A DNA stretch of 64,000 nt. Source: Spartobacteria bacterium. Its GTDB lineage: Bacteria > Verrucomicrobiota > Verrucomicrobiia > Chthoniobacterales > UBA10450. Below the pieces are notes generated by a model. It saw nothing but the letters and a program-made list of their open reading frames with translations. It had not been told where the DNA came from and made no database searches. Numbering within the stretch: the stretch's first letter is position 1; each line of letters opens with the position of its first letter. The position numbers and the translations under genes are program-made. Below are positions 182 to 63,677 of the stretch, piece after piece. Where the stretch lies: positions 120,131 to 184,130 of the forward strand of contig JAJPGZ010000012.1 in the NCBI GenBank assembly GCA_021325495.1, given 5' to 3'.

Positions 182-213
182 GATTGTCGATCTTAGTGAT
201 TGTCGATCTTAGC
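182..213. repeat. Head-to-tail pair of the 10-mer TGTCGATCTT (185-194, 201-210), 16-bp period
   Basis: GATTGTCGATCTTAG occurs twice (182-196 and 198-212). The pair spans the stop of the adaptor gene and the 13-nt gap before the RND permease start. Confidence 0.9.
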
Positions 214-1380
214 GGGCGAAGGTGATGGACTCGTGGCCGATTGTTCCATCGGCTTCGCATTCACCCGCGCGCCGGGCGCGAGTTGCAATTGCCCGCTTGT
301 CACCACCATTTCATCCGGCTGTATGCCGTCTTTGATCACGGTGAGATCGCCCTGTTGCTGTCCCGGCTTCACCTGCCGTAACTCAAGCGTTGAATCCGGT
401 TTAACAACAAACACGTACGGCCCGCGTTGACCGATCTGCACCGCGCTACTCGGCACCAGTTTCGCATTCGAGAGCACATCGAGAATCAAACGCACGCGGA
501 CGAATTGCGCCGGCCACAGCGCATGATCCGGATTTGCCGTGATCCCGCGCGCCTTCACCGTCCCGACACCGGGTTGGACCGCGTTGTCGATGAAATAGAG
601 ATCACCTTCGCGCGGCGGAATGTTGTCGTTCTCCGCGTCCGTCACCACTTTCATTTTCGGATTGCCAAGATATTGCCTAACGATGGCCAAGTCCGGCTCG
701 GCCACGGTGAAATCGGTGTAAATCGGATCGAATCCCTGGACGGTGACGAGGGCCGGACTGCCGGGCCCGACCAGATTGCCAACATCGACATTGCGCAACC
801 CGACGCGGCCGTCGATCGGCGATTTGATGTAACAAAAATCTAGATTCACCTGCGCCGCCGCCACCGCTGCCTGCGCCTTCATCGCGTTCGCCTGCGCGGT
901 GTCCCATTCCTGTCGCGCCGTCACATTCTTCGCGACGAGCTCGGCTTCGCGTTTCAAATTCGCCTCGGCTAAGGCGCGATCGGCCTGCGCCGAAGCGAGC
1001 GCCGCTTCATACGGGCGCGGATCGATTCGAAATAAGAGATCGCCTTTTTTAACGTCGGCGCCGTCCTTGAATTCGCGACTGATAATCTGCCCGTTTACCT
1101 GCGCTTTGATGTCCACCGTCTCGAACGGTGCGGTCGTGCCGATTTCGTCCAGATAAAGCGGCACATCGGCGGTTGTAACTTTTGCGACTTCGACGTTTCT
1201 CGGCGGCGGAGCCGGCTGCGTTTTGTGATGCGCGACGAAACTTCGCAGCAACAGCAGAATCACGACGAGGCCGACAACTCCGATAACAATCCGCAACCGC
1301 CGCTTGCCCCCGACGCGTTGTTCGAGATCGCCCACCATCTCACGCGCGGCTTCGTTCACTTGTGTAATTGTCGGCGGCAT
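193..1380 (-). CDS. Efflux RND periplasmic adaptor (membrane fusion protein, HlyD family)
   Basis: ORF 193..1557 trimmed to the ATG at 1380 (MPPTITQ..., followed by TM helix IVIGVVGLVVILLLL). Adaptor-type motifs are present (GDLLFRIDPRPYEAAL, IKSPIDGRVG). The marR stop at 1382 abuts this start. Confidence 0.85.
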   Translation of the reverse strand: MPPTITQVNEAAREMVGDLEQRVGGKRRLRIVIGVVGLVVILLLLRSFVAHHKTQPAPPPRNVEVAKVTTADVPLYLDEIGTTAPFETVDIKAQVNGQIISREFKDGADVKKGDLLFRIDPRPYEAALASAQADRALAEANLKREAELVAKNVTARQEWDTAQANAMKAQAAVAAAQVNLDFCYIKSPIDGRVGLRNVDVGNLVGPGSPALVTVQGFDPIYTDFTVAEPDLAIVRQYLGNPKMKVVTDAENDNIPPREGDLYFIDNAVQPGVGTVKARGITANPDHALWPAQFVRVRLILDVLSNAKLVPSSAVQIGQRGPYVFVVKPDSTLELRQVKPGQQQGDLTVIKDGIQPDEMVVTSGQLQLAPGARVNAKPMEQSATSPSPSPAKIDNH

Positions 1381-1381
1381 A

Positions 1382-1837
1382 TCAGTGCTTGCCGTTGCGG
1401 CTTGCCATTCTTCGACCGTTCCCGCGGCCGTTCGTTGATTTTTCCTCTGCTTTGTCGCGCACACGTTCCAGCACGCGCATGCACGTGCGCAATTCCGCCG
1501 ATGACACGTCCGCCAAAAGTTCGCCGCGGAGCTTGTTCGCAGCCGCGGTGATTTCACTGATCACGCGTGTGGCGCGCCGGCCGAGATGCACCGTTTTGCA
1601 ACGGCGATCGTGCGCGGAGTTTTTGCGCGCGACCCAGCCGCCGCGCTCAAGGCGATGCAACAACGTCACTAAAGTCGGCTCCTCAATCTCGAGACGCGAT
1701 GCGATCTCGGCCTGAGTGATCGGTTCGCCCGCGAGCGAAAGGTGCAGAAGCGTGCGCCACTTCGCCTGACTAAGTCCGAGCGGCTTGAGGCGCTGGTCCA
1801 GCTTCGAGCGCCAGGCCCGCGCCGTGCCGTGCAACAA
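1382..1837 (-). CDS. MarR-family transcriptional regulator
   Basis: Winged-HTH core LSQAKWRTLLHLSLAGEPITQAEIASRLEIEEPTLVTLLHRLERGGWVARKNSAHDRRCKTVHL. The ORF track uses a TTG start. The frame stays open to 1885, so the true start is uncertain. Confidence 0.85.
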   Translation of the reverse strand: MLHGTARAWRSKLDQRLKPLGLSQAKWRTLLHLSLAGEPITQAEIASRLEIEEPTLVTLLHRLERGGWVARKNSAHDRRCKTVHLGRRATRVISEITAAANKLRGELLADVSSAELRTCMRVLERVRDKAEEKSTNGRGNGRRMASRNGKH

Positions 1838-1882
1838 AGGACCGAAGGCGTCGATGTCGATCTTGTCCGCGAGTTTCAGAAT

Positions 1883-1900
1883 TCGTTAGCATGCTAACGA
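1883..1900. promoter_or_regulatory. Perfect 18-bp palindrome TCGTTAGCATGCTAACGA; candidate MarR operator
   Basis: The sequence is its own reverse complement. It lies in the 98-bp region upstream of the marR-adaptor-pump operon. Each half is a 7/8 match to the dispersed word CCTAACGA. Confidence 0.5.
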
Positions 1901-1935
1901 CTCGCGCTCCTGTCAAACGGGAGATGTCGATCTTT

Positions 1936-3387
1936 TCAACCCGGGTCGAGCGCGAACAAAACCAGGGTTTGATTCCGATAATCCTTCACCCGCTTCACCA
2001 CCCGCGGATGCTTGGGCGACCATTGCTCGCTCGACATCGCCTTTCGTTCCTCATGCGGCCGCGTCAGAAAATAATGCGCGTCGTAGGGCACTTCATCCAC
2101 GCTGCTCAGATATTGCACCGGCGCGAGCATGTAGAAAAAGAACGGCTGATAATTTGGATCGACTGCGTACAGCGTCTCGTTAGGCGGAACCGACGCGTTT
2201 ATTTCCGCCGCGATGTTCTTCACCTTTTCTTTCACGACGAACGAAAAGATCGGTAGACTGATCACGCCGATCGCCACGAACAGCCCGACAAACACCACGC
2301 TGACGCGCGACCAGACCGGCTCGGTCGATCGCAATTTCGCCGGCAAGGCGTACGCGTCACGCGTGAAGGCGAGCGCGAGTAGACAGCAAAACGGCACCAA
2401 AACCGGAAGGGTGTAGCGCGGAGCGGAGCCAGGAATTAATCCGACGACGACCAGCGGTAGCGCCGTGCTCCAGGCGAGTGCGCGCGCGAGATTGCGTTCG
2501 TTTTCGTCGGAAAATTTTTCGAAACGCAAAAACGGAACGACGAGAATCCACGGGAGAAAATAGAACAGCGCTCGCGGAATGGTGGTGAGCCATGCGCGCC
2601 ATCCGAAGAAGCCGCCGGTGATGCGGCCGGCGAATTGATTGTTCCATGTTTTCATCATGCGTTCGGTTTCGGTCGCATGCATGAAAGGAATGAGCCATGC
2701 CGCAAAGATCGACATCATCACGATGATGCCTAACAAATGCGCGGGATGAAATAGGACGCGCCATTGTCGATCTTTCCACAAAACAAAACCGACGAGCGCG
2801 TAGAAAAAAACCAGATGGGTCGGACCTTTCGCGAGCCAGCCGAGCCCGAGAAAAATCCACGGCACGGTCCACGTAAGCCAGGGCGAACGGCGCTCGCGCC
2901 ACCAGCTCAACCAAAAAATCATGGCCAGGCCGCAGAGCGAAATGTAAAGCGCTTCGATTTCGACCAGTCGCCCTTTTTCGAGCGTGCCGAAATTCGTTAG
3001 CCAAATCAGCGCCGCCATGGTCGATCCAGCGCCAAGCGTTTGTTTTGCGATTGTCACAAACGCGATCGCCACCGCTAAGATCGACAACACCGATGGAACA
3101 CGCGCGGTCCATTCATTGCGCACACGAAAGATTTTAAACGAACCGGCGATGAGCCAGTTAATCAGCGGCGGCTTGCGGTAATACGCTTCGCCACCTACTT
3201 GCGGCACGAGATAATTGCCGCTCTCGATCATCGCCATCGCGGGCAAAATGCGGCGGCCTTCTTCGCCTTTGATCTCGAACAACCCGAGCGCGGGCAGATA
3301 GATCGCGGCCCAGACAATTGCGACCAACAAGAGCGGTGGCAGACGCGACATGCGTTCGATTGTTGCGCACATGTCGATCTTGTCCAT
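1936..3387 (-). CDS. Polytopic membrane glycosyltransferase, ArnT/PMT (GT39/GT83-like) family
   Basis: 483-aa multi-TM ORF with an N-terminal YYRKPPLINWLIAG loop typical of lipid-linked sugar transferases. The start is at 3387 or 3351. Confidence 0.8.
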   Translation of the reverse strand: MDKIDMCATIERMSRLPPLLLVAIVWAAIYLPALGLFEIKGEEGRRILPAMAMIESGNYLVPQVGGEAYYRKPPLINWLIAGSFKIFRVRNEWTARVPSVLSILAVAIAFVTIAKQTLGAGSTMAALIWLTNFGTLEKGRLVEIEALYISLCGLAMIFWLSWWRERRSPWLTWTVPWIFLGLGWLAKGPTHLVFFYALVGFVLWKDRQWRVLFHPAHLLGIIVMMSIFAAWLIPFMHATETERMMKTWNNQFAGRITGGFFGWRAWLTTIPRALFYFLPWILVVPFLRFEKFSDENERNLARALAWSTALPLVVVGLIPGSAPRYTLPVLVPFCCLLALAFTRDAYALPAKLRSTEPVWSRVSVVFVGLFVAIGVISLPIFSFVVKEKVKNIAAEINASVPPNETLYAVDPNYQPFFFYMLAPVQYLSSVDEVPYDAHYFLTRPHEERKAMSSEQWSPKHPRVVKRVKDYRNQTLVLFALDPG

Positions 3388-3397
3388 GTCGATCTTG
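3370..3397. repeat. Head-to-tail pair of the 10-mer (3372-3381, 3387-3396), 15-bp period
   Basis: CATGTCGATCTTG occurs twice. On the minus strand each copy reads AAGATCGACATG, and one of the ATGs is the ORF start at 3387. Confidence 0.9.
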
Positions 3398-3454
3398 GCC
3401 GCTTGACGTTTGCCCCGCGAAATCTACAGTATGTGTCCTAGTCCGCGCTGGAAG

Positions 3455-3481
3455 GAGTGGGTGCAGTAGCCCACTCTTTTT
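3455..3481 (+). terminator. Terminator/attenuator-like hairpin in the nusA leader
   Basis: GAGTGGG (3455-3461), loop TGCAGTAG, CCCACTC (3470-3476), then TTTTT (3477-3481), 22 nt before the nusA ATG. No plus-strand gene lies upstream, so it is not a conventional 3-prime terminator. Confidence 0.35.
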
Positions 3482-3502
3482 AGTCTGCGGACTGGATGTT
3501 TT

Positions 3503-4771
3503 ATGAACGCCGAATTTATTGCCATGCTCGACTACCTGGAGCGGGAACGCGGGATCAAACGCGATGTCCTGCTCGAGGCGGTATCGACTGCGTTGCTCTC
3601 GGCCTCGAAAAAAAGCGTGAGCGCGTCACGCGATCTGCGCATCGACATCGACCCGAAGACCGGCGTCATTCGCGCGCTCGCGAAATTGCTCGTGGTCGAA
3701 GACGTCACGAATCCGCAGGACGAAATTTCGTTAGCCAAAGCGCGCAACATCAAAGCGGACGCGAACGTCGGTGACGAAGTGGAAGTGGAAGTGACTCCGA
3801 AAAATTTCGGCCGCATCGCCGCGCAAACCGCGAAGCAGGCGATGATGCAACGCATTCGTCAGGTCGAGAAGGAGATGATTTACGAGGAGTTCAAGGACCG
3901 CGCCGGTGAAATTGTTTCGGGCACGGTGCGCCGGTTCGATCGCTCGGATGTGATTCTCGATCTTGGCAAATTCGAAGCGATCATGCCGCAGCGCGAGCGC
4001 GTGGTGGTTGAAGATTACAACGTGGGCGATCGCTTGCGCGCCTATGTCGTCGCGGTCGATAACGGAATCCGCGGACCGGAAATCATTGTTTCGCGCAGCC
4101 ATCCGAATTTCGTTAGGCGACTTTTCGAAATGGAAGTGAGTGAAATTGCCGACGGCACGGTCGAGATTCGCGGCATCGCCCGCGAAGCGGGTTATCGGAC
4201 GAAGATCGCGGTCTGGAGCGCGAATGAAAAGGTCGATCCGGTCGGCGCTTGCGTCGGCATGCGTGGTTCGCGCGTGAAGAACATTGTGCGCGAGCTGAAT
4301 AACGAAAAGGTGGACATCATTCGTTGGAGCTCGGACCCGAAGGAATACGTGCTCGAGGCGCTGAAGCCGGCCAAGGTGAAAAACCTCGTGTTCGATACGG
4401 AAAAGAAGAGCGTGCAAATTTCCGTGGATGAAGATCAGCTTTCGCTCGCGATCGGGAAAAAGGGACAGAACGCGCGACTGACTTCGCGATTGACCGGTTG
4501 GGAAATCAACATCGACAAGGACACGTCGGCGACGACGGCGGTCGAGCAGAAGGTCGCGCAAGCGGCGCAAACGCTCGCGGCCGCGTTGCCGATCACGAAT
4601 GACCAGGCGATGACGCTGGTGAAGTCCGGTTTCACTAACTTAGAAGGATTGCGCGACGCGGACGTCTCTGATTTCGTGGACATCCTCGGCGTCGATGAAG
4701 CGAAGGCGCAGGAAATCCATGCGGCCGTGCCGCGAGAAGAAGCAGCAGCGCAGAACGCCGGCTCGGCCTAA
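3503..4771 (+). CDS. nusA: Transcription termination/antitermination factor NusA
   Basis: 422 aa with an N-terminal NusA domain, S1 and two KH domains (GACVGMRGSRVKNIVRELNNEKVDII). It is followed by infB. Confidence 0.95.
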   Translation: MNAEFIAMLDYLERERGIKRDVLLEAVSTALLSASKKSVSASRDLRIDIDPKTGVIRALAKLLVVEDVTNPQDEISLAKARNIKADANVGDEVEVEVTPKNFGRIAAQTAKQAMMQRIRQVEKEMIYEEFKDRAGEIVSGTVRRFDRSDVILDLGKFEAIMPQRERVVVEDYNVGDRLRAYVVAVDNGIRGPEIIVSRSHPNFVRRLFEMEVSEIADGTVEIRGIAREAGYRTKIAVWSANEKVDPVGACVGMRGSRVKNIVRELNNEKVDIIRWSSDPKEYVLEALKPAKVKNLVFDTEKKSVQISVDEDQLSLAIGKKGQNARLTSRLTGWEINIDKDTSATTAVEQKVAQAAQTLAAALPITNDQAMTLVKSGFTNLEGLRDADVSDFVDILGVDEAKAQEIHAAVPREEAAAQNAGSA

Positions 4772-4802
4772 CGAGCCATGAAAAAGATTTTTAGATATCA
4801 GA

Positions 4803-6977
4803 ATGGCAACGAAAACGACCAGCAAGACGGCAGCGAAAAAAACGGCGACCCGCAAAACCGCGGCGACGAAGCCGGCTTCCGGCAAAGCCAAGGTCGTTAA
4901 GAAAAAAACGGAACCGGCCCCGGCTCCGGAAGTTAAAAAGCCGGCCGCGCATAAACCGCCGCCGGCGCCGAAACGCCATGTCGAGAGCGTTTCGTTGATC
5001 GATAAACAAGCGGCGCCGAAGAAATCGGAAGACGGCGAAGTTAAGAAGAAAACGACGGTGTTGCCGCCAATCTCGCGCATTCGCGAATCCATGGCGGCGC
5101 CGCCGCCGAAACCGGTCGAGGCGCCGAAGCCCGAGCCGCCAAAGGAAGTTGTCGATCTTGCGCCGGAAGCGCCGGCGACTCCGGTGGAGGAGGAAGAGCC
5201 GCAGAATGTCATCCACATCAAGCCGCCGATTATTGTGAAGCAACTCGCGGCAGAGCTGGGCTTGAAACCGCATCAGGTCATCGCCGAGCTGATGGCTTTC
5301 AACATTTTTGCGAACATCAATCAGACGATCGAGCCCGACATCGCGTCGAAAATTGCGGAAGCGCACGGATTCGTTCTCGAAAAGGAGCGCCGCGAAAAAG
5401 GCGGCGGTGTGCACAAGGTCGAGCAGGTCGTGGTCGCGCCGCCCGCGCCCGTTATCCAGAAGGAAGAAGAATTAAAACCGCGCGGTCCCATCATCACTTT
5501 CATGGGTCATGTCGATCACGGTAAGACCTCGCTCATGGACGCGATCCGCAAGACGCGCGTCGCCGCCGGTGAAGCGGGCGGAATCACCCAACACATCGGC
5601 GCGTATTCGGTCGATCACAAAGGGTCGCGCATTACTTTCATTGATACGCCGGGTCACGCTGCGTTCACGGCCATGCGCGCGCGCGGCGCAAACGTGACCG
5701 ACATTGTCGTGCTCGTTGTCGCCGCGGACGACGGATTGATGCCGCAGACGCTCGAAGCGATCAGTCACGCCAAAGCTGCGCCACATGTGAAGATCATGGT
5801 GGCGATCAACAAAATCGATTTGCCCGGCGCGAACATCGACAGGGTAAAGAAACAACTTCAGGACCAGGGACTGACGCCCGAAGATTGGGGCGGCGAAACC
5901 ATTGTCGTGCCCGTTTCGGCTACGAAAGGTCAGGGCATCGATCAGTTGCTCGAGATGATGACGTTGCAGGCAGAGGTGATGGAATTGAAATCGTCACCGA
6001 CGGCAAAGGCGCGCGGCACTGTCATCGAAGCGCAGGTCGAAGCCGGCCGCGGACCGGTCGCGACCGTCATCGTGCAAATGGGCACGATACGCGTAGGCGA
6101 TCCATTCATCTGCGGCGATTACAGCGGCAAAGTGAAATCGCTCATCAACGATCAGGGCAAGATGATCAAGGAAGCGGGGCCGGCCATGCCGGTAAAAGTT
6201 CTTGGTTTCACCGGCCTCCCGAATGCCGGTGACGAATTCTTAGCCATGGAGTCTGAGCGCGAAGCTAAGCAACTAAGTGATGAACGGCTTGAAGCCAAGC
6301 GCGCCAACAAACTCGCGGCCCCCCAACGCGCCACTCTCGAAACATTGCTCGAAGCCGCCGATGGCAGGAAGACGCTGAAGATTGTCTTGAAAGCGGATGC
6401 GCAAGGCTCGCTCGAAGCGATCATTGGGGCGCTCGGTCAAATCGAAAGCAAGAAAATCAGTCTTGAATTCGTTCATTCGGCTGTCGGTCCCGTGTCCGAG
6501 TCGGACATTCTGCTCGCGAGCGCGTCCAACGCCGTGGTCGTTGGCTTCAACGTCAAAGTCGAGTCGAACGCGGTCACCGCCGCGCGTTCCGAAGGCGTGC
6601 AGGTAAAACTTTACAGCATCATCTACGAGCTGATCGATCAGATTAAAGAAGCGATGGCCGGATTGCTCGACCCGGAACATCGCGAGACGGTCATCGGACA
6701 CGCGGAAGTGAAACAAGTTTTCCAATTGAGCAAAGGTATCGTCGCCGGTTGTCTCGTGACCGACGGCCGGATTGCGCGCGTGGCGCGTGCGCGCGTCTTG
6801 CGCCGCCGTCAGCCGGTTTACGACGGCGGAATCTCGACGCTGCGTCGTTTTCAGGACGACGTGAAAGAAGTCCGGTCCGGTCTCGAGTGCGGTCTCAAGC
6901 TCGGCGATTTTAGCGAATATCAAGTCGGCGACATCATCGAGTCGTATCAACTCGAGCAAATCGCGCAGAAACTTTAA
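4803..6977 (+). CDS. infB: Translation initiation factor IF-2
   Basis: G-domain motifs [20 protein letters not shown] and NKIDL. The N-terminus is long, basic and Pro/Ala-rich. Confidence 0.95.
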
Positions 6978-7015
6978 CCCATTCGGCGTTTGCTGCGGCG
7001 AACGAGGGCAGTGTC

Positions 7016-7357
7016 ATGAAACATCGACAATTACGCGTGAACGAACTTCTCAAACGCGAGCTCAGCATTATCGTCGCCCGCGAATTAAGTTTCGAGAACG
7101 CGCTCGTCACCATCAATCAGGTCGATGTTACGACCGACCTCAAGAACGCGCACGTCTATGTCAGTGTCCTGGGCGAAAACAAAGACGTTCTCGCGCAGTT
7201 GGAAGAACATCGCGTCCCGCTCCAGACACAGCTTGCCCGTAACGTCGTGCTCAAATACACCCCGCATCTCATTTTCCATCTCGACGATTCGATCGAGCGC
7301 GGCACGCGCGTGATCAAAATCCTTCAGGAGATCGAGCCGCCTAACGACACCGAGTGA
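7016..7357 (+). CDS. rbfA: Ribosome-binding factor A
   Basis: 113 aa of RbfA-like sequence (NAHVYVSVLG, HLIFHLDDS), in the canonical position after infB. Confidence 0.9.
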   Translation: MKHRQLRVNELLKRELSIIVARELSFENALVTINQVDVTTDLKNAHVYVSVLGENKDVLAQLEEHRVPLQTQLARNVVLKYTPHLIFHLDDSIERGTRVIKILQEIEPPNDTE

Positions 7358-8334
7358 ACGCGGCCACTTTCTCCGAGATCGGAAAAGCTCTCCACGAACA
7401 TCAACGTGTCGCCGTCATGAGCCATGTGCGACCGGATGGCGATGCGCTCGGCAGCCAGCTCGCGCTGGGATTGTCGCTCAAGAAACTCGGCAAAGACGTT
7501 CGCATTTGGAACGAAGAGGGAATGCTGGAGAAGTACAGCTTTCTCCCCTCCTCCGATTTGGTATCTAAGCCACCGGCCGAACCGGAAGATGTCGATCTTG
7601 CAATTGCCTTAGACACCGCCATTCAAAGCCGGCTCGGCACCGCGCTGACTGCGATCAAATCCGCTAAGACTTGGATCAACATCGATCATCACCCGAGCAA
7701 CCCGCGTTATGGCGATCTCGTTTACATCGACGATACATCGCCCGCGACCGGCCAGATCATTTACGAATTAATCAAAGATCAGGGCCTGCCGTTCGACCGC
7801 GCGATGGCCGAGAATCTTTACGTCGCCATTTCCACCGACACCGGTTCGTTTCAATATCCAAACACGACCGCGCGCACTTATGAGATTGCGGCCGAACTCG
7901 TCCGCGCCGGTGTCGATGTTGGCCGCGTGAACCAGCTCACCTACGAAAATTATCCGAAGCGCCGCATCGAGTTGTTGCGCGAACTGTTAGGCACATTGCA
8001 TTTCGAATGCGCCGATCGCGTCGCGAGTTTTAGTTTGAGCATGAAGACCGCCGCCGATCTCGGCGTATTGCCGGAAGATAACGAAGGTCTCATCGATCAT
8101 GTCCGCGCCATCCGCGGCGTGGTTGTTGCCGCATTTTTCGAGGAGCTCAGCGACGGCAAAGTGCGCGTCAGCATGCGATCGAAAGACGATAGGGCCGACG
8201 TCTGCGCGGTCGCGACAAAATTCGGCGGCGGCGGTCACAAACTTGCCGCCGGTGCGCGGGTCCGCGGCTCGCTCGCCGAAGTCGAAGGCAAAGTGCTGGC
8301 GGAAATTTCCCATGTCCTTGACTGCAACTCCTGA
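7354..8334 (+). CDS. DHH/DHHA1 phosphoesterase (NrnA-like oligoribonuclease/pAp phosphatase)
   Basis: DHH motif INIDHHPSN and DHHA1 motif GGGGHKLAAG. The GTG start overlaps the rbfA stop (GTGA). Confidence 0.8.
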   Translation: MNAATFSEIGKALHEHQRVAVMSHVRPDGDALGSQLALGLSLKKLGKDVRIWNEEGMLEKYSFLPSSDLVSKPPAEPEDVDLAIALDTAIQSRLGTALTAIKSAKTWINIDHHPSNPRYGDLVYIDDTSPATGQIIYELIKDQGLPFDRAMAENLYVAISTDTGSFQYPNTTARTYEIAAELVRAGVDVGRVNQLTYENYPKRRIELLRELLGTLHFECADRVASFSLSMKTAADLGVLPEDNEGLIDHVRAIRGVVVAAFFEELSDGKVRVSMRSKDDRADVCAVATKFGGGGHKLAAGARVRGSLAEVEGKVLAEISHVLDCNS

Positions 8335-9034
8335 CGGCGTCCTGCTCGTCGACAAGGCCGATGGCATGACGTCGCACGACGTTGTTGCGATCGTTAGGCG
8401 CAAGCTCGACATCAAAAAAGTCGGCCACTGCGGCACGCTCGATCCGCTCGCGACCGGTTTACTTATTCTCACCATCGGTCGCGGCACGAAGATTCAGGAT
8501 CTGTTGATGAGCGAAGACAAAGTTTATGCCGGCACGCTTACGCTCGGTAGATCGACAAGTACGCAAGATCGACAAGGTGAAGTCGTCGAGACGCGCCCCG
8601 TTCCGGAATTGAACGAAGAACAAATTCGCGCCGCGTTCGAAAAGTTCCGCGGCGATTTTCATCAACTGCCGCCGATGGTCTCAGCTAAGAAACAGGGCGG
8701 CGTTCCGCTTTATAAACTCGCGCGTGAAGGCAAAACGGTGGAACGAGAGCCGCGTCTGGTCCATGTCTACGCCTACTCGATCGATAAGATCGCGTTGCCA
8801 GATATCGATTTTACGGTTCACTCGAGCAAAGGTTTTTACGTGCGCACCTACGCGCATGATATCGGCGAAGTCCTCGGCTGCGGCGCGCATTTGAAAAATC
8901 TGCGCCGGACCAAATCCGGACGTTTCGATGTCGATCTTGCAATTAGTGTCAGCGACATCCAAAGCAAGCCGCGCGACGAAATCGTCGGACGCATTCTAAG
9001 CTTGCCCCAAGTCTCCCGGATGCGCGGCGCATAA
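8312..9034 (+). CDS. truB: tRNA pseudouridine(55) synthase TruB
   Basis: ORF 8099..9034 trimmed to the ATG at 8312 (MSLTATPDGVLLVDKADGMTSHDVV). GTLDPLATGLL is present. Confidence 0.9.
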   Translation: MSLTATPDGVLLVDKADGMTSHDVVAIVRRKLDIKKVGHCGTLDPLATGLLILTIGRGTKIQDLLMSEDKVYAGTLTLGRSTSTQDRQGEVVETRPVPELNEEQIRAAFEKFRGDFHQLPPMVSAKKQGGVPLYKLAREGKTVEREPRLVHVYAYSIDKIALPDIDFTVHSSKGFYVRTYAHDIGEVLGCGAHLKNLRRTKSGRFDVDLAISVSDIQSKPRDEIVGRILSLPQVSRMRGA

Positions 9035-9041
9035 GATCGAC

Positions 9042-12037: not shown

Positions 12038-12041
12038 ATTC

Positions 12042-56124: not shown

Positions 56125-56175
56125 CCGAAAAAGGTTGTAGCTGCTGCCTCTCTGGCGGCAGATTCAGTGAGACCA

Positions 56176-57048
56176 ATGAAGATCGTCATCATCGGCTCTG
56201 GTGGCAGGCTCGGCGCCGCATTAGCGCGCGCGCTGACCGGGAAATTCGACGTCACCGGTTTCAATCACGACGCTCTCGACATTGGCAACATCGGCGAGAT
56301 CCACGCGTGCCTCGACCGCTTGAAGTTCGACGTGCTCATCAACGCCGCCGGACTCACCGATGTCGATCTTTGCGAAAAGGAACCAGACCGCGCCTTCCGC
56401 ATCAACACGGAAGCGCCGCAGGTTTTGGCGCGGGTTTGTCGCGACAAGAACGCGAGGCTGATTCACTTCAGCACCGATTACGTTTTCGATGGCGAAAAAC
56501 GCGAGCCCTATACGGAAGACGATGTCGCCAAGCCGATCAGTATTTACGGCGCATCCAAGCGCGCCGGCGAAGAATCGGTCCTGGGCGTGCAAGATCGACA
56601 TCTTATTGTGCGCGTCTCGTGGGTATTCGGTCCGGATCGTCCGAGTTTCATCGATGGAGTGATCCGGCGCGCGATGGAAACCGAGGAGATCGAAGCGGTG
56701 GCAGACAAGTTCTCCCTCCCCACTTATACGATGGACATCGCCGAAATGTTGCCGCGATTGTTCGATAGCAATGTTCCGGGCGGAATTCTGCACTTTTGCA
56801 ACAGCGGCGAATGCAGCTGGCAATCCTACGCGCAACACGCGCTCGATTGTTGCCATAAGTTCGGCGTGAACGTGAAAGCGAAAACGGTCGCGCCGGTGAA
56901 AATGGAGAACATGAAAAACTTCGTGGCGCGCCGGCCGGTTTATTCAGTGTTGTCCACGGAGAAATACAAAAAGCTCGCCGGCGGCGCACCGCGCCCTTGG
57001 CGAGATGCGGTCGCCGATTATATTAAGAGCCACTATTCCAAAACATGA
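56176..57048 (+). CDS. rfbD: dTDP-4-dehydrorhamnose reductase
   Basis: ATG at 56176 (MKIVIIGSGGRLG). YGASKRAGE motif. Confidence 0.85.
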   Translation: MKIVIIGSGGRLGAALARALTGKFDVTGFNHDALDIGNIGEIHACLDRLKFDVLINAAGLTDVDLCEKEPDRAFRINTEAPQVLARVCRDKNARLIHFSTDYVFDGEKREPYTEDDVAKPISIYGASKRAGEESVLGVQDRHLIVRVSWVFGPDRPSFIDGVIRRAMETEEIEAVADKFSLPTYTMDIAEMLPRLFDSNVPGGILHFCNSGECSWQSYAQHALDCCHKFGVNVKAKTVAPVKMENMKNFVARRPVYSVLSTEKYKKLAGGAPRPWRDAVADYIKSHYSKT

Positions 57049-57743
57049 AAACAACTCTCTGCGGAATCACCTTGTCGATCTTTCTCTGCGCCGGCGCGCG
57101 CGCGGAATTGAAGTGGGAGCAAACGCAGATCGAGCTGCATCCCAAGCCTAACGACAAGCAGGCGGTCGCGCATTTTAAATACGAAAACATCGGCAAGACG
57201 CCGGTCCATTTTAAATCTGTGCACGCCTCGTGCGGTTGCACCACGGCCCAGACGCAGAAAACCGAAGTGCCGCCCGGCGAAAAGGGCGAAATCACCGCCA
57301 CATTCAACATCGGCGGTCGCACCGGGCTTCAGATGAAAACCGTTGCGGTGGTGACGGACGATCCGAAAAGTCCGAACACGACCCTGACTTTGAAGGCGAT
57401 CTTGCCGCAGATGCTCACAGTCAATCCGACATTCGTGTTTTGGAAAGGCGGCGAAGAACCGAAACCGAAAACGATTAACATCAAAGGCGGCTCGGATTTC
57501 GTGGTCAAGAACGTGAAGGTCACGCCGTCGAATCCCGAATTCACCACGAGCGTAGAGCCGAGCGGGGCCAGTGAGTGGAAAGTGAGCGTGCAACCCAAGT
57601 CCACCGACAAGGGTATGGCCGGAACGCTGACCATCGTGCCGGACTCACCGGATGTGGCCGCGCCCCAAGCGTATTACGCGAACGTGAGTGTGACCGCGAC
57701 CCCGCCGCCCGCGGCGGCGCCTTCACCGACGCCATCGCATTGA
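57045..57743 (+). CDS. DUF1573-domain protein
   Basis: Signal peptide and the HASCGCT motif typical of DUF1573. The C-terminus is Pro/Ala-rich. Confidence 0.75.
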   Translation: MKTTLCGITLSIFLCAGARAELKWEQTQIELHPKPNDKQAVAHFKYENIGKTPVHFKSVHASCGCTTAQTQKTEVPPGEKGEITATFNIGGRTGLQMKTVAVVTDDPKSPNTTLTLKAILPQMLTVNPTFVFWKGGEEPKPKTINIKGGSDFVVKNVKVTPSNPEFTTSVEPSGASEWKVSVQPKSTDKGMAGTLTIVPDSPDVAAPQAYYANVSVTATPPPAAAPSPTPSH

Positions 57744-57744
57744 T

Positions 57745-58176
57745 GTGATCGCGCGCGCCTTGCGGCAGGCGGCGCTGCTCGTCGTGCTGGCATTCCTGCC
57801 CGCGATCGGCGAAGCCGTTTATTTTCGCGGCAAAGTTCCGTGGCAATCCCGCCTAACGAGCGGCCAGACTGTCGATGTCGATCTTGCGCGAAGCTGGGGC
57901 GAGAACGCGATGTGGGTCGATGCTCGCCCGGACAACGAATTCGCAGCCGATCACATTCCGAACGCAATTTTGCTGAACGAAGATCGCTGGAACGATTTGC
58001 TCCCGCAATTTCTCGCGCATTGGTCGCCGGAGAAAAAGATTGTCGTCTACTGCAGCGCCGCCAGCTGCAATCTGGCCGAGGAGGTCGCGCGCCGTCTGCG
58101 CGACGAAGCAAAATTGCCTAACGACATCCGCGTCCTGCAAGGCGGCTGGGAAGAATGGCAGAAGAAAAACAAATGA
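57745..58176 (+). CDS. Membrane-anchored rhodanese-domain protein
   Basis: An N-terminal TM helix and the rhodanese active-site loop VVYCSAASCNLAE. Confidence 0.75.
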   Translation: MIARALRQAALLVVLAFLPAIGEAVYFRGKVPWQSRLTSGQTVDVDLARSWGENAMWVDARPDNEFAADHIPNAILLNEDRWNDLLPQFLAHWSPEKKIVVYCSAASCNLAEEVARRLRDEAKLPNDIRVLQGGWEEWQKKNK

Positions 58177-58595
58177 AGATCGCATGGCGCATTGTCGATC
58201 TTATCGTGGGCGGATTGTTCATCTACGCCGGAGTTCTCAAAGTCATCGACCCGATCCAATTCGCGCGCGACATCGATAACTACAAAATTCTTCCGTGGTC
58301 GATCGGCGTCCGGCTCGCCTTTTTTCTGCCGTGGCTGGAAATTTTTTGCGGACTCGCGCTCATCCTCCGTCGCCTTTATCTCGGTGGATTGTCGATCTTA
58401 TCCATACTCATGGGCGTCTTCCTCGCCGCATCGCTGATCGCCAAAGCGCGCGGCCTCGACATTAGTTGCGGCTGCTTCGGTCGCGTCAGCAAAAATTTCA
58501 GCTTTGCCTGGCACCTCACGCTCGACTTCGCAATTTTCGCCGCAATCATCGCGCTTTGGTTCGCGCAAAAAAATGAGCGAGGAACTCGACACTAA
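58155..58595 (+). CDS. MauE/DoxX-family membrane protein
   Basis: 146 aa with four TM helices and a CGCFG motif. Confidence 0.7.
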   Translation: MAEEKQMKIAWRIVDLIVGGLFIYAGVLKVIDPIQFARDIDNYKILPWSIGVRLAFFLPWLEIFCGLALILRRLYLGGLSILSILMGVFLAASLIAKARGLDISCGCFGRVSKNFSFAWHLTLDFAIFAAIIALWFAQKNERGTRH

Positions 58596-59259
58596 AGTTA
58601 AGCTCGCGATTTATGATCTGACCGCGGCGACCGGTCAGGTCCCGAATTCATCCGAAGTCGCGCGCAAGATCGACATCGACGAAAGCGAAGTGCTCGCGGC
58701 GTTCGCGCATTTGTATGCGAAGCGGCTCATTTTTCCCGAGCCCGGCGATCCCACGCGCATCCGCATGGCGCCGCCTTTTTCCGGCGTGCCGACTTCGTTT
58801 CCGGTGGAAGCGAATAACAAACGCTACTACGCGAATTGCGTTTGGGACGCGTACGGAATTGCCGCCGCCTTGCATTCCGATGCCGTCAGTCACGCGCGCG
58901 ACGGTTACTCCGGCGAGCCGCTCACGCTCGAAGTGCGAAACAATCAGCCGGTCCTGAAACCGTACCTCGCGCACTTTGCCGTGCCCGCGGCGGATTGGTG
59001 GGACGACCTCGTTTTCACCTGAGCGACCATGCTCCTCTTCCGGTCGGAAGAGAATGTCGATCTTTGGTGCAAAGCGAACAACATTCCGCGGCGGCCGCTT
59101 ATAAATCTCGAGCAGCTTTGGCAACTCGCCCTCACCTGGTACGCAAATCGCCTGACGGTGGAATCGCGTCGCCCGAAACCGGACGAAATGGTGTCGATCT
59201 TCGCCTCGATCGGCCTAACGGGTCCGTTTTGGGACCCGAAATCCGACCAATGGAACTAG
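58573..59259 (+). CDS. Alkylmercury-lyase (MerB) family protein with an in-frame TGA at 59020-59022: selenocysteine candidate or pseudogene
   Basis: ORFs 58504..59022 and 59029..59259 are in the same frame and are separated only by TGA GCG ACC. YANCVWD matches MerB YAWCALD (Cys96/Asp99). The TGA aligns with catalytic Cys159: LVFT-U-ATMLLFRSEENVDLW versus QSFC-C-HVHFFASVPTAEDW. Confidence 0.6.
59024..59059 (+). promoter_or_regulatory. SECIS-like stem-loop immediately 3-prime of the in-frame UGA
   Basis: Upper stem CTCTTCC (59035-59041) / GGAAGAG (59046-59052) with tetraloop GGTC (59042-59045). Lower stem CGAC..AT (59024-59030) pairs with AT.GTCG (59054-59059). The loop G residues are 23-24 nt from the U of UGA. 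Confidence 0.5.
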
Positions 59260-59765
59260 AGATTCGTCTCGCGAGTTCGGGAGATCGCGACGAAATTTGG
59301 AAAATTTTTCGCGAGACCATTAAGGCTGGCGATACCTATGCGATCGATCCGGAAATCAGTCGCGACGATGCGCTCGCATACTGGTTTGCAACCGGAACGC
59401 GCACCTGCGTTGCCGTGCAAGATCGACAACTACTCGGCACATATATTTTGCGACCGAACCAGGCGGGCGGCGGCGCCCATGTCGCGAACGCGGCATTCAT
59501 CGTCGCGCAAGACGCGCGCAGCAAAGGAGTCGGTCGCGCCATGGCGGTCCATTGTTTGGAGGAAGCACGGCGACTCGGCTTTCGCGCGATGCAATTTAAC
59601 TTCGTTGTCTCGACGAATGAATCCGCCATTCGCTTGTGGAAAGATCTCGGCTTCGAAATCGTCGCGACCTTGCCGAAAGCGTTTCGGCATCCGACGAAAG
59701 ATTATGTCGATGTTTACGTGATGTTTCGCTCGCTCGCGCAAAATTCTGAGGCAAATTCGGCCTAA
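59250..59765 (+). CDS. GNAT-family N-acetyltransferase
   Basis: ATG at 59250 (MELEIRLASSGDRDEI). Acetyl-CoA loop QDARSKGVGRAM. Confidence 0.8.
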   Translation: MELEIRLASSGDRDEIWKIFRETIKAGDTYAIDPEISRDDALAYWFATGTRTCVAVQDRQLLGTYILRPNQAGGGAHVANAAFIVAQDARSKGVGRAMAVHCLEEARRLGFRAMQFNFVVSTNESAIRLWKDLGFEIVATLPKAFRHPTKDYVDVYVMFRSLAQNSEANSA

Positions 59766-59767
59766 CG

Positions 59768-60094
59768 ATGCAAACCATCATCCAGGTCATCGCCACCGGC
59801 CGCGGTTCGTTGCGGACTCAGATCATGAGCGATCCGCAACTCGAGAAAAAATTCGGCTTCGAAAAAATTTGGGCGAAACAGCCGGGACGCCCGCACGGTT
59901 GGGCGAAGATCCACAGCGCCCGCGACGTTCACGGCGCGATCAATCTCGAATGGCACGCGCGGAGTTGCACACTCATCTGTCGCGTCGTCACCAAACTCGG
60001 CCACAAACCGAATTCGATCATCGGCGACTTCATCGATTATCTGCTCGCGCGACATCAAAGCCGCATTCTCGCCATTCACATCATGCGGCGGTGA
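59768..60094 (+). CDS. Hypothetical protein
   Basis: 108-aa ORF in a coding-like context. I recognise no family. Confidence 0.4.
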   Translation: MQTIIQVIATGRGSLRTQIMSDPQLEKKFGFEKIWAKQPGRPHGWAKIHSARDVHGAINLEWHARSCTLICRVVTKLGHKPNSIIGDFIDYLLARHQSRILAIHIMRR

Positions 60095-60097
60095 AAT

Positions 60098-60385
60098 CTA
60101 TTTCCGGCGAATGCGATCGAGCAGCCTCGCCATCGCGCTCTTCTTTTCCGGCGGCGACGGCGAAATGTTCATGTCGATCTTGACCGTCGTGCGCGGTGGC
60201 GGTGCGAAGGAAATGCGCTGCGTTTTTGCGAGGATGCGGTATTGCGCGACCGGTTTCCAATCGCTCATCCCTTCGTGCCAGTAGAAATCTTCCTTCAGTT
60301 CGCCGGCGAGAATTCTGCGGTTGAACTCCTCCTCGCGGAATTCGCCTAACGAAGTGCCGTCGATGCGACAAACGTGAAAGATCAT
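60098..60385 (-). CDS. GYF_2 (DUF4339)-like small protein
   Basis: ORF trimmed to the ATG at 60385 (MIFHVCRIDGTSLGEFREEEF...YWHEGMSDWKPV). It overlaps the upstream gene by ATGA. Confidence 0.6.
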   Translation of the reverse strand: MIFHVCRIDGTSLGEFREEEFNRRILAGELKEDFYWHEGMSDWKPVAQYRILAKTQRISFAPPPRTTVKIDMNISPSPPEKKSAMARLLDRIRRK

Positions 60386-63099
60386 TTTCGATTTGCGATG
60401 GTGCCGAATTCGCCTTGCTGGTGAATTAGTTTCGCGACTAACGCGGTCCAACCGGTTTGATGCGACGCGCCCAGCCCCGCGCCGGTGTCGCCGTGAAAAT
60501 ACTCGTGAAACAAATAGAGATGTCGATCTTCCTTCTGCGCTGTAGGGGACGCTGTTAGCGTCCCAGGGAAGCTGGCAGCTTCGCCTACAGAAGAAGAATT
60601 TTGCATAGCGCGCTCGAAGGGTCTCTCGCCGGATTCGTTAGGCAGAAAAAGTTTAATTAAACGGTTCGATAATTCGTTCGCGATTTCCTTCAAGGTTAGC
60701 AAATTTCCCGAGCCGGTCGGACATTCCACTTTGAAATCGTCGCCGTAGTAATGATGAAACTGCTGCAATGATTCGATCAGGAGATAATTGATCGGGAACC
60801 AGACCGGTCCGCGCCAGTTCGAGTTGCCGCCGAAAATCCCGGTCTGCGATTCCGCCGGTTCGTAGGAAACAATCTTTTCTTCGTCGCGAATCGTTAGCCG
60901 ATACGGATTTCGTTCGTGAAATTTGCTGAGTGAACGCACGCCGTAGTCGCTGAGAAATTCATCCGGATCGAGCATGCGCCGCAACAAACATTTCATGCGA
61001 TGACCGCGGGTGAGCGCAACCAGCCGGCGCTCTTTCATTCCCGGCTCCTGCCAGCGCGAGACGAGACTGGCGAGGTCGGGCCGATGTTCGAGATACCATT
61101 CGAGACGCGCCTTGAATCCGGGCAGCGCGTCGATGAGTTGCCATTGAATCGTCTCGACCGCGAGGAGCGGCATCAAACCGACTAACGAACGCACTTTTAG
61201 CGGAATGTAACGTCCGCCCGGCGTGTGCAGGACGTCGTAATAAAATTCGTCCTCTTCATTCCACAGCCCGATGCCTTTGCCGCCGAGATTGTTCATGGCG
61301 GCGGCGATGCTGAGGAAATGCTCGAAGAATTTGGTGGCGATGTTTTCGTAAACGTGATTCTCGGCCGCGAGCTCGATCGCGATCCGCATCAAATTGAGCG
61401 AAAACATTCCCATCCAGCTCGTCCCGTCGCTTTGTTCGAGATGCGAGCCGTCGGGAAAGCGCGCGCTGCGATCGAAGACGCCGATATTGTCGAGTCCGAG
61501 AAATCCGCCTTCGAAAATGTTGCGACCGGTTGAGTCCTTGCGATTCACCCACCAGGTGAACGCGAGCAGCATTTTGTGAAAGACGGTTTCAAGAAATGCG
61601 CGATCGCCTTTGCCGGTTTGTTTGCGTTCGATCTGGTAAATGCGCCACGCCGCCCATGCCAGCACCGGCGGATTCACATCGCCGAAATTCCATTCATACG
61701 CGGGAATCTGTCCGTTCGGATGTTGGAACCATTCGCGCACGACGACATCGATCTGTGATTTGGCGAATGCAGGATCGACAAGTGCCAGCGGGATGCAGTG
61801 AAAGGCGAGGTCCCACGAGGCGTACCACGGATACTCCCACTTGTCCGGCATCGACATCACGCGCTCGTTGTAGAGATGCTGCCAATCGAAATTGCGTCCG
61901 GAATAGCGTTCGTTAGGCGGCGGTGGTTGGGCCGGGTCGCCCTCAAGCCATTGCTCGACGATGTAATGATAGAATTGCTTGTTCCAGATCAGCCCGGCGA
62001 GCGCCTGTCGGTAAACGGCGCAATGGTCGCTCGTTAGGCAACTCGACTCCCGCTGCGCGTAAAATTCGTCCGCTTCCGCTTTGCGCGCGGCGAAGACGGC
62101 GTCGAAATCTTTGAACGCGTCGCGGGCATTTCGTCCGGGGAGTTCGTCGCGCTTGGTTAGGCGCAACCTGACGCCAACGCTTTCGCCCGCTGCGATGACG
62201 AAGCGATAATGCGCCGCGGCTTTCGTTCCGACTTTGTTCGGATTAACGATGTCGATCTTGTCCTGAATCACGGCATCGCCGATGGAATCCTTCACATAAC
62301 GCGAGTGGTTCGGAACGCCCCACAGCCGCTCGAGATTGGAATCGTTTTCAGTGAAGAGCAGTCGCTCCGCTTTTTCGCAATGGAGACGATACGTGCCGAG
62401 CAAGTTGTGACTAAGCTCGATCTCGTTAGGCGTTCGCTCTTGCAAGTTCGGTTTGTCGTTGTCCCGCCCCCAGCACCACGTGTTCCGAAACCAAATCGTC
62501 GGCAAGATGTGCAGCGTGGCCGGTTCGGGACCGCGGTTGGTCGCAGTCGCGCGAATCAGAATGTCGAACGGCGACGCTTTCGCGTATTCGACTTCGACGT
62601 CGAAGAAGCGATTCTCGGCGAACACATCGGTGTTCCAGATTTCGAACTCGCCTTCGCTCTTGGAACGTGCGCCGCTTCGCCTAACGAGCTCGTCATACGG
62701 AAACGCGGCCTGCGGATAACGGTACAAGATCGACATGTAACTGTGGCTCGGCGTCGCGTCGGTGTACCAATAAAGCTCCTTCACATCTTCGCCGTGATTC
62801 CCCTGCGGCCCGCTCACGCCGAAAAGTCGCTCCTTCAAAAACCCGTCGCGCTCATTCCAAAATGCGAATGCAAAACAGAGCCGACCTTTGAAATCGGAAA
62901 TGCCGGCGAGGCCATCTTCATTCCAGCGATACGCGCGCGAACGGGCGTGATCATGCGGCAAATAATTCCAGGCGTCGCCGTTCGCGCTGTAATCTTCGCG
63001 CACCGTGCCCCACGCCCGCTCGGCCAGATACGGGCCCCAGAAATACCACGGTTCGTTAGGCGAATTATTTTCCGCCAGTCGCTGCTGCTCGGCGTTCAT
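60382..63099 (-). CDS. GH63-like (alpha/alpha)6 glucosidase-type glycoside hydrolase
   Basis: 905 aa. C-terminal catalytic region ...FHEYFHGDTGAGLGASHQTGWT. Confidence 0.85.
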   Translation of the reverse strand: MNAEQQRLAENNSPNEPWYFWGPYLAERAWGTVREDYSANGDAWNYLPHDHARSRAYRWNEDGLAGISDFKGRLCFAFAFWNERDGFLKERLFGVSGPQGNHGEDVKELYWYTDATPSHSYMSILYRYPQAAFPYDELVRRSGARSKSEGEFEIWNTDVFAENRFFDVEVEYAKASPFDILIRATATNRGPEPATLHILPTIWFRNTWCWGRDNDKPNLQERTPNEIELSHNLLGTYRLHCEKAERLLFTENDSNLERLWGVPNHSRYVKDSIGDAVIQDKIDIVNPNKVGTKAAAHYRFVIAAGESVGVRLRLTKRDELPGRNARDAFKDFDAVFAARKAEADEFYAQRESSCLTSDHCAVYRQALAGLIWNKQFYHYIVEQWLEGDPAQPPPPNERYSGRNFDWQHLYNERVMSMPDKWEYPWYASWDLAFHCIPLALVDPAFAKSQIDVVVREWFQHPNGQIPAYEWNFGDVNPPVLAWAAWRIYQIERKQTGKGDRAFLETVFHKMLLAFTWWVNRKDSTGRNIFEGGFLGLDNIGVFDRSARFPDGSHLEQSDGTSWMGMFSLNLMRIAIELAAENHVYENIATKFFEHFLSIAAAMNNLGGKGIGLWNEEDEFYYDVLHTPGGRYIPLKVRSLVGLMPLLAVETIQWQLIDALPGFKARLEWYLEHRPDLASLVSRWQEPGMKERRLVALTRGHRMKCLLRRMLDPDEFLSDYGVRSLSKFHERNPYRLTIRDEEKIVSYEPAESQTGIFGGNSNWRGPVWFPINYLLIESLQQFHHYYGDDFKVECPTGSGNLLTLKEIANELSNRLIKLFLPNESGERPFERAMQNSSSVGEAASFPGTLTASPTAQKEDRHLYLFHEYFHGDTGAGLGASHQTGWTALVAKLIHQQGEFGTIANRK
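60540..60590. other. 51-nt nested-hairpin, in-frame segment inside the GH63-like gene
   Basis: An outer stem CTGTAG (60540-60545) / CTACAG (60585-60590) encloses GGGACGC-TGTTA-GCGTCCC (60546-60564) and GAAGCT-GGC-AGCTTC (60568-60582). It encodes SVGEAASFPGTLTASPT (17 codons). Confidence 0.45.
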
Positions 63100-63143
63100 G
63101 GGTTTGCGACGGTCATAGACCGCCGCTACATTTTTAGCGAGCG

Positions 63144-63677
63144 ATGAATGCGACTGTCGATCCGAACATCACGATGCGGGAACTGCTGGAGCAATTTCCC
63201 GGCGCGCAGCGTGCGCTCTTTCGCAAATATCACATCGGCGGTTGCAGCAGCTGCGGGTTTTCGCCGGAGGAAACGCTCGCCGGCGTCTGTGCGCGCAATG
63301 AAAATGTCGATGTCGATCTTGCCATTGAGCACATCATCGCGAGCGAAGAAGCCGAGCGGGCGATGCAGATTGCGCCGCGCGAATTGGCGGAGCGATTGAA
63401 GAATGAAAAAATTCAGCTCGTCGATGTCCGCACGCGTGAAGAATTCGAAGCGGTCAAGATCGACAAGGCGCATTTGTTTACCGCGGAGTTGATGTCGCAG
63501 TTATCGCCCTCGGTTCCGACGGTGATTTACGATCATACCGACGGGCGCAGCCTCGACGCCGCCGCCTATTTTCAAGGACACGGATTCAGCGACGTGAAAG
63601 CGCTGCGCGGCGGGATCGACGCGTGGAGTGTCGAGGTCGATCCAAAATTACCGCGCTATCATCTGGAAAATGCCTAA
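63144..63677 (+). CDS. DUF1858 (redox-disulfide-like) plus rhodanese-domain protein
   Basis: N-terminal HIGGCSSCGF motif. The C-terminal rhodanese fold has Asp in place of the catalytic Cys (VIYDHTDGRS). Confidence 0.7.
   Translation: MNATVDPNITMRELLEQFPGAQRALFRKYHIGGCSSCGFSPEETLAGVCARNENVDVDLAIEHIIASEEAERAMQIAPRELAERLKNEKIQLVDVRTREEFEAVKIDKAHLFTAELMSQLSPSVPTVIYDHTDGRSLDAAAYFQGHGFSDVKALRGGIDAWSVEVDPKLPRYHLENA

Follow-up and report, generated by a model that had tools for sequence, protein, structure and literature searches.

What maintains one word of ten nucleotides at 123 sites within 64 kb of bacterial core genome? The question is raised by contig JAJPGZ010000012.1 (assembly GCA_021325495.1) of an uncultured Spartobacteria bacterium, from which a stretch of 64,000 nucleotides, called the window throughout, had been described from its letters alone in an earlier note. 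The word, TGTCGATCTT on one strand and AAGATCGACA on the other, is referred to as word A. The portion of the genome examined consisted of the window and 15.6 kb of the same contig outside it (~80 kb).

Word A and the pressure on DNA

A scripted recount and a pattern search gave 123 exact copies of word A, 67 on the forward and 56 on the reverse strand, identical to the earlier count, at a density of ~1.9 per kb and occupying ~2% of the window DNA. They are distributed as follows.

185..63465, both strands with the orientations interleaved: word A as (W)TGTCGATCTT / AAGATCGACA(W), dispersed exact copies

The possibility of a recount near expectation, raised in the earlier note, is dispelled by an expectation of 0.18 copies (maximum 1) in 100 dinucleotide-preserving shuffles of the window. 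An order-3 Markov model gave 0.82, a value inflated by word A itself since the model was trained on the window. One-mismatch copies number 28 as compared to ~13 by chance, and include all five that had been named before (8548, 10712, 15964, 25236 and 33514). The variant AACATCGACA accounts for 9 of the 28 and is the sole strongly enriched one-mismatch form in the window.

A or T stands immediately 5' of TGTCGATCTT in 121 of the 123 copies, in all codon phases and in 24 of the 24 non-coding copies; therefore the true motif is AAGATCGACAW, of at least 11 nt. It is asymmetric, with G or C at four of its first ten bases. The flank bias reported earlier is thus present, but it had been understated. 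Information in the flanks is limited to positions -1 (A/T), -2 (T rare) and +10 (G favoured), and therefore the copies are not pieces of a longer repeat. The 11th base, like a second word (word B, GCCTAACGA), direct pairs of word A at 15-17 bp and gains and losses across the clade, all described below, was absent from the earlier note.

The window forms part of the 664 kb contig k141_1207321 of the ENA metagenome assembly ERZ27279688, and 29 further copies were found in the 15.6 kb outside the window. The same DNA with the same copies was recovered from other samples at 99.8-100% identity (GCA_037024455.1, GCA_037025585.1 and Logan SRR5581483). Because independent assemblies carry the same sequence, word A is real and not an artefact of assembly or editing. 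Neither is it confined to the window as part of a larger repeat, as evident from the uninformative flanks and from its presence in many other species. Polymorphism at the word sites within the population was considered and set aside, as the few differences among the other assemblies (99.8-100% identical) all lie outside the copies.

Copies were assigned to genes by the database's gene calls, while the codon-shuffle test used slightly different calls of our own. By the former, 99 copies lie in coding sequence (CDS), 16 are intergenic and 8 run across a gene end. The window is 95.5% coding, with 2,910 bp (4.5%) of non-coding DNA, and word A is found at 1.6 per kb in CDS as compared to 5.5-8 per kb outside it. 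The intergenic enrichment claimed earlier (21 copies in ~2 kb) is thus seen. The lack of strand skew claimed there is also seen (67 vs 56, interleaved), and the 53 sense and 46 antisense copies in CDS indicate that word A is not read at the RNA level. The copies in CDS occupy five of the six frames with a strong bias, and encode the following peptides.

VDL: 39 copies of word A
KID: 25 copies
SI[LF]: 14 copies
DR[QH]: 11 copies
RST: 10 copies
CRS: 0-1 copies

The earlier note had given 64, 26 and 12 of 102 copies in CDS for the three phases. When synonymous codons were shuffled within each gene, 6.4 +/- 2.3 copies were recorded as compared to 97 in the real genes, so that an equal frequency in shuffled-codon versions of the same proteins is not observed. 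The effect on the proteome of the window is equally evident: VDL is found 45 times, whereas the reversed LDV is found twice and composition predicts 8; for KID the count is 27, with 4 for the reversed DIK and 3 predicted. Of the 45 VDL tripeptides, 40 are encoded by GTCGATCTT. The pressure maintaining word A thus acts on DNA and not on protein, as the earlier note had claimed.

A depletion of word A in constrained genes, also claimed there, is weakly supported. The intervals assigned to nusA (3397-5149) and infB (5160-7589) are mere gaps between copies; nusA extends from 3503 to 4771 and infB from 4803 to 6977, with a word A copy at 5150 inside infB. Over 30 genes, word density did not track protein conservation significantly (Spearman -0.20, P = 0.28), and this idea was dropped.

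Origin, arrangement and a second word

In up to 80 relatives, diverged sequence can be aligned to the coding copies with no gap, in agreement with the earlier claim that the copies arise by substitution and not by insertion; some intergenic copies align with gaps. At 20 CDS sites with at least 8 aligned relatives each, the peptide of the window was common to a mean of 27% of the relatives only. Many copies thus cost an amino-acid change, most clearly in recN.

27623..29296, forward strand: recN, with 7 copies of word A and 3 of word B
recN site: LVDL in the window, LVEA in 40/51 relatives
recN site: VVDL in the window, VVEL in 69/74 relatives
recN site: LVDL in the window, LRDL in 64/77 relatives
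lpxC site: KIDN in the window, KIEN in 26/33 relatives
lpxA site: IVDL in the window, I[IV]DP/S in relatives
truB site: DVDL in the window, DVAN in relatives

The peptides quoted earlier for TruB (LGRSTSTQDRQGEVV) and isocitrate lyase (DVDLRD) were both found. Other copies stand on conserved peptides: at the recN sites 27975, 28006 and 28403 the exact word is present in 33-42 of ~80 relatives, and at site 27027 it is common to many relatives.

Conservation was measured against L174 (GCA_038229295.1), the best relative at hand, with 75.7% DNA identity over 12.3 kb. Word A is identical there at 10 of 18 alignable sites (56%), as compared to 10.4% of 11,896 control 10-mers (P = 3e-6). The unshared copies differ in L174 at 3-5 positions, and therefore were built or lost in one lineage. 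Word A is thus actively maintained.

With tandem pairs collapsed, the copies lie at more even distances than by chance: the coefficient of variation of the spacing is 0.80 as compared to 0.99 by chance (P = 0.008), and gaps shorter than 200 bp number 21 against 35.5 expected. At short range, ten direct pairs of word A were recorded 15-17 bp apart, in six of which both copies are exact, three having a one-mismatch and one a two-mismatch partner. These and related copies are as follows.

185..210, forward: direct pair in 16 bp register at the 3' end of the RND-MFP gene, with near-identical units ATTGTCGATCTTAGYG
3372..3396, forward: direct pair in 15 bp register where PMT_2 begins, in the region upstream of nusA
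12012..12037, reverse: direct pair in 16 bp register in the spacer downstream of isocitrate lyase
17111..17136, forward: direct pair in 16 bp register within a glyoxalase-family gene
26779..26804, reverse: direct pair in 16 bp register where the TIGR03790-family gene begins
34774..34798, forward: direct pair in 15 bp register, filling the 39 bp spacer of convergent genes
25236..25261 (25236/25252), reverse: mixed pair in 16 bp register, in which the imperfect TAGATCGACA supplies the lpxA stop codon and the partner is exact
8548/8565, 33498/33514 and 21404/21419: further mixed pairs, similar to 25236/25252
32721..32767: the sole close inverted pair, with 17-nt arms GTTGTCGATCTTTCAAC ... GTTGAAAGATCGACAAC 37 bp apart, inside a transporter gene
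9033..9042, reverse: copy overlapping the truB stop codon by the TAA in TAAGATCGACA

Stop-codon overlap like that of truB is also seen at 33498, 36193 and 38518. Short spacers at gene 3' ends are saturated with word A, four copies being present in 86 bp of convergent spacers. The pair at 3372..3396 is conserved in L174 (9957/9972), which has additional pairs of its own. The direct pairs lie mostly in tiny spacers at gene ends, and some of them resemble 15-16 bp duplications. Neither word occurs inside tRNA-Gly(GCC) (14981-15055, forward) or tRNA-Leu(GAG) (48009-48092, reverse); a word A copy is present at 48115, 23 bp from tRNA-Leu.

A second word is dispersed through the same DNA.

675..63680, 34 copies on the forward and 21 on the reverse strand: word B, GCCTAACGA / TCGTTAGGC, 55 dispersed copies

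The 55 copies, among them those at 4766, 28243, 37605 and 59760, compare to 1.2 expected, and 50 lie in CDS as compared to 1.3 in codon shuffles. The stop codon of nusA is the TAA of a word B copy. Word B is placed independently of word A, the median distance to the nearest word A copy being that of random expectation, and no fixed spacing between the two was found in the window. It has no palindromic core. One-mismatch copies are relatively many (~41) and conservation in L174 is lower than that of word A (2 of 7 sites), by which word B looks older or less strictly recognised.

Distribution among relatives and genomic setting

NusA and other proteins place the host in the Verrucomicrobiota, Chthoniobacterales, near Candidatus Udaeobacter, and all the relatives found are metagenome-assembled genomes from soil. 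The window itself is ordinary core genome, with the gene order nusA-infB-rbfA-truB-ribF; isocitrate lyase and malate synthase; DAHP synthase; prmA; lpxC/fabZ-lpxA; recN; two pilT/pilU-family genes; a hybrid kinase; and macB. In it lpxC and fabZ are fused to encode a 440-residue protein (23140-24462, forward), followed by lpxA. The densities of both words in relatives are listed below; the relatives from L175 on are the closest found, ranked by the fast-evolving protein PMT_2, the percentage being PMT_2 identity.

80 GTDB species loci around nusA (amino-acid identity ~70-75%): A low to moderate in one group, at most 0.56 per kb; B 0.6-1.5 per kb in other groups
80 metagenome loci around recN (75-79% identity): A in most, 207 copies in 710 kb, at most 0.8 per kb; B essentially absent
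L175 (78%): A 2.5 per kb; B 1 copy in 2.4 kb
L179 (68%): A 0.9 per kb; B 2 copies in 5.8 kb
L174 (66%): A 1.2 per kb; B 0.5 per kb
L177 (65%): A 0.8 per kb; B 1 copy in 21.5 kb
L173 (66%): A none; B 1 copy in 21.4 kb
L178 (67%): A 1 copy in 9.9 kb; B 2 copies in 9.9 kb

Most of the relatives retrieved by RecN and PMT_2 carry word A, while some sister lineages are without A or AACATCGACA, and many of the 80 GTDB nusA loci are without either word. The variant AACATCGACA is co-enriched in relatives, and in some it rivals or exceeds word A. Word B is dominant (0.6-1.5 per kb) in other Chthoniobacterales species, for example L082, L083, L010 and L028. By these densities word A is a trait of the clade that varies from 0 to 2.5 per kb and has been lost in places; word B is patchier, and this genome appears to be the densest seen for A.

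Other candidate words were rejected. The apparent lineage-specific words CGAGCCCGAG, AACGTCCAAC, AACGTCGAAC and CCACTCAACC are local one-strand tandem repeats, and GAATGACGAA is a clustered intergenic heptamer array. A long series of dialects was therefore dropped, the dispersed words being A, its variant A2 and B only. The local one-strand repeats lie at L078 8785-8829, an (AACGTCC)n run upstream of a signal-peptide gene; L041 3853-4900; L055 9828-9885, an 8 bp repeat; and L065 19525-20128, with an 18 bp period. Arrays of the heptamer AATGACG, with direct runs facing inverted runs, occur in many relatives (L007, L008, L013, L019, L023 and others). They are intergenic, downstream of the nusA operon at one common place (near 15.7-16.0 kb) and elsewhere (L013, 609-640 and 2916-3046). 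Unlike the dispersed words, they are clustered, either as a repeat or as an array of binding sites.

One gene of the window was considered as the determinant of the word.

25263-26780, reverse: TIGR03790-family gene of unknown function, between lpxA and recN

It is limited to those recN loci of relatives that have a higher density of word A (0.27-0.78 per kb, as compared to 0-0.29 without the gene), with L133 as an exception (no gene, 0.49 per kb). As it has no nucleic-acid-related domain and phylogeny is the simplest explanation, it was rejected as determinant, and is probably a phylogenetic marker.

Three viral contigs match the tandem-pair pattern, with 2-5 copies each. Over a few kb, the IMG/VR contigs L171 (2135-5021) and L172 (1760-2780) have 3-5 copies of the same 10-mer, among them a direct pair at 16 bp. 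Such copies may be operators or iterons belonging to unrelated phages, and a link to this host is unlikely; with few copies, and with two of the three contigs at 67-68% G+C, they were set aside as evidence on it. Two contigs with a Udaeobacter-type nusA 90-91% identical to that of the window, L012 (DATLBQ010000337.1, labelled Pyrinomonadaceae) and L064 (DATLPS010000169.1, Candidatus Limnocylindria), are probably binning contaminants. In L173 (ENA ERZ25039558 contig_113732), the gene calls for nusA-infB-truB are broken up, IF2 for instance into pieces of 201 and 79 residues, which looks like long-read frameshift errors rather than real pseudogenes.

Explanations of the words and their meaning

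The explanation favoured, as a tentative one, is that AAGATCGACAW may be a self-DNA signal accumulated by biased DNA uptake and recombination, like the DNA uptake sequence (DUS) of Neisseriaceae and the uptake signal sequence (USS) of Pasteurellaceae. Fragments bearing the word would preferentially be taken up by the competence machinery (type IV pilus) and would then recombine homologously, as in those two families. Mutations that complete the word would reach other cells more often; copies would build up where protein function tolerates them and be kept once made, and accumulation would cease once each recombining stretch holds a copy. On this view word B would likewise be such a signal, but an older one or one whose recognition is less strict. 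That the bias resides in DNA uptake, that the organism is competent and which receptor it has are the parts that we infer. The uptake explanation is ranked first because biased uptake with recombination would account for all the matched features by one mechanism. It fits best the length of the word, its two orientations, the frame bias, the inflated tripeptides, the conservation of sites, the even spacing and the one-base variant.

These features agree one by one with those of the known uptake signals. DUS, for example GCCGTCTGAA and its 12-mer extension, is recognised by the minor pilin ComP, and USS has the core AAGTGCGGT in two types. Both are of 9-12 nt and make up to ~2% of a chromosome (10.1101/2025.10.24.684340). 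Like DUS, word A is an asymmetric word of 10-12 nt at ~1-2 per kb in both orientations, its copies are frame-biased at permissive coding positions, mismatched copies are few and sites are strictly conserved, as expressed in the 'stringent conservation of DUS' (PMC2397512). Its spacing is on the scale of recombination tracts, similar to that of DUS, which matches conversion-tract length (PMC2397512), and one-base dialects exist among relatives. As with USS, of which 65% lie in open reading frames in H. influenzae (PMC2817400), most copies are genic, and the pattern can be accounted for by a molecular-drive model of mutation, biased uptake and recombination. USS and DUS also inflate the encoded tripeptides in the proteome (PMC2817400), by ~2-fold for USS as compared to 5-20-fold for word A.

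Genes of a possible uptake apparatus were recognised in the window.

36270..38519, forward: two adjacent PilT/PilU-family type IVa pilus ATPase genes (TIGR01420, 453 and 351 bits, cut-off 319)

They contain no word A and one word B copy. Of a competence gene set, these and a T2SSE-family ATPase were the only members seen in the ~80 kb, and no recognisable pilin genes stand beside pilT. The presence of pilT next to a paralogue is weak support for DNA uptake.

Several observations weigh against the uptake explanation. About half of DUS and USS lie in terminators, often as inverted pairs, whereas word A is absent from inverted-repeat terminators; hairpins resembling intrinsic terminators were not in excess in the 20 kb scanned, and none was built from word A. 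Direct pairs at 15-17 bp are found instead, ten as compared to one close inverted pair, and uptake offers no obvious account of this register. Two unrelated words in one genome are unprecedented for DUS and USS, as are fixed-register direct pairs and word-free sister lineages. Presence is patchy at similar distance, L174 having both words, L177 word A only and L173 and L178 almost none. Natural transformation is unreported for this lineage in the literature searched. Word A further differs from DUS in belonging to another phylum, in its unrelated sequence and in that 80% of the copies are genic in a genome that is 95% coding, and from USS, which has AT-rich flanking segments, in flanks informative at one or two bases only. 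With the terminator and inverted-pair habit absent, word A is not a member of DUS/USS in the strict sense.

The same departures allow another explanation, which we regard as unlikely: an undescribed sequence-specific drive by conversion or transmission, with interchangeable specificity, that would be neither a DUS/USS uptake signal nor a by-product of the kind proposed for the highly iterated palindromes (HIP) of cyanobacteria. It is allowed by the two independent words, by their gain and loss among sisters and by the direct dimers of word A at 15-17 bp.

A ratchet of methylation and repair, of the type discussed for HIP1 (GCGATCGC), is a doubtful candidate as well. A methyltransferase, a nickase or a bias of mismatch repair would convert near-matches and protect exact copies, and the word, rather than an uptake signal, would be a by-product or serve strand discrimination. 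Like word A, HIP1 and the alternate HIPs are over-represented (15-300-fold) in every frame, are conserved between genomes and have been lost or replaced in some lineages. Word A holds GATC and TCGA, and has the core GATCG in common with HIP1. Its density, saturating near 1-2 per kb, and its even spacing are as predicted by Elhai's model, in which alternate words are replaced together with their methyltransferases (PMC4390886); such replacement would agree with the way A and B come and go among sister lineages, and two words would be natural given two enzymes. The patchiness would also be consistent with a determinant that is mobile, for instance a methyltransferase. However, HIPs are GC-rich palindromes of 6-8 nt tied to cognate orphan methyltransferases, unlike word A, which is an asymmetric, AT-leaning 11-mer with no known link to a methyltransferase, and the conservation of HIP1 has itself been read as selection and not as repair (PMC5861425). 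Word B, moreover, lacks a palindromic core, and no methyltransferase, Vsr or MutH-like gene was found among the called genes of the window and its 10 kb flanks. The ratchet would need an enzyme that reads 11-12 contiguous, fully specified, asymmetric bases. To our knowledge, the sites of known methyltransferases are far shorter than this.

It is improbable, in our estimate, that word A is a selected array of binding sites, in which an abundant nucleoid, segregation or self-marking protein binds the word and selection keeps the copies. The five-fold conservation of exact copies over background and the regular spacing would suit such an array, and the ten direct pairs, one of them conserved in L174, resemble cooperative head-to-tail binding. 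A nucleoid role has been proposed for HIP1 (PMC5861425). Binding proteins usually tolerate degenerate sites, whereas one-mismatch copies of word A are barely above chance. Against an array of this kind stand also the location of 80% of the copies within genes, at the cost of amino acids, the sister lineages that manage without the word, and the unrelated second word, which would require a second protein.

The remaining explanations are contradicted by the data. A polar guide motif read in one direction by a translocase or nuclease is highly improbable: word A is short and over-represented like Chi and KOPS/SRS, and some Chi sites are of comparable density, but those words are strongly co-oriented with replication, whereas the orientations of word A are interleaved over the 64 kb and both flanks, and its sense and antisense copies are similar in number. 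A miniature mobile or repeated element, or an artefact, is barely credible: the resemblance of some tandem pairs to 15-16 bp duplications and the gapped alignment of some intergenic copies are outweighed by ungapped coding copies, uninformative flanks, the same sequence in other samples and the word in many other species, and repetitive extragenic palindromes (REP) and miniature inverted-repeat elements (MITE), being intergenic, structured and spread by insertion, are unlike word A, with 80% of its copies in CDS.

In full-text literature, word A was found in primers and constructs only, and for Udaeobacter or other Verrucomicrobiota the search turned up no account of competence, of uptake signals or of over-represented words; the earlier claim that no such word had been described thus stands as far as this search extends. 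A survey of 2025 records uptake sequences from two families only (10.1101/2025.10.24.684340). Only three bacterial groups are known to have words that take up ~2% of the genome and remodel the proteome: such a density, with proteins altered by the word itself, was previously known from the uptake signals of the relatives of Neisseria and Haemophilus and from cyanobacterial HIP1.

The two co-resident words, and the lineages with and without each, form a natural comparative design for finding the determinant, and the words can be used as a barcode for binning the contigs of these organisms. If word A is not an uptake signal, an unknown mechanism of word writing is indicated; if the undescribed drive is true, a small determinant would rewrite thousands of sites across the genome, protein sequences included. 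Sequence-specific DNA uptake is known only from two proteobacterial families of animal commensals, while the host of word A belongs to Udaeobacter-related Verrucomicrobiota, which are among the most abundant soil bacteria. If word A is an uptake signal, self-recognising transformation would have evolved a third time and would operate in soil, and this would bear on gene flow and species cohesion of uncultured soil bacteria.

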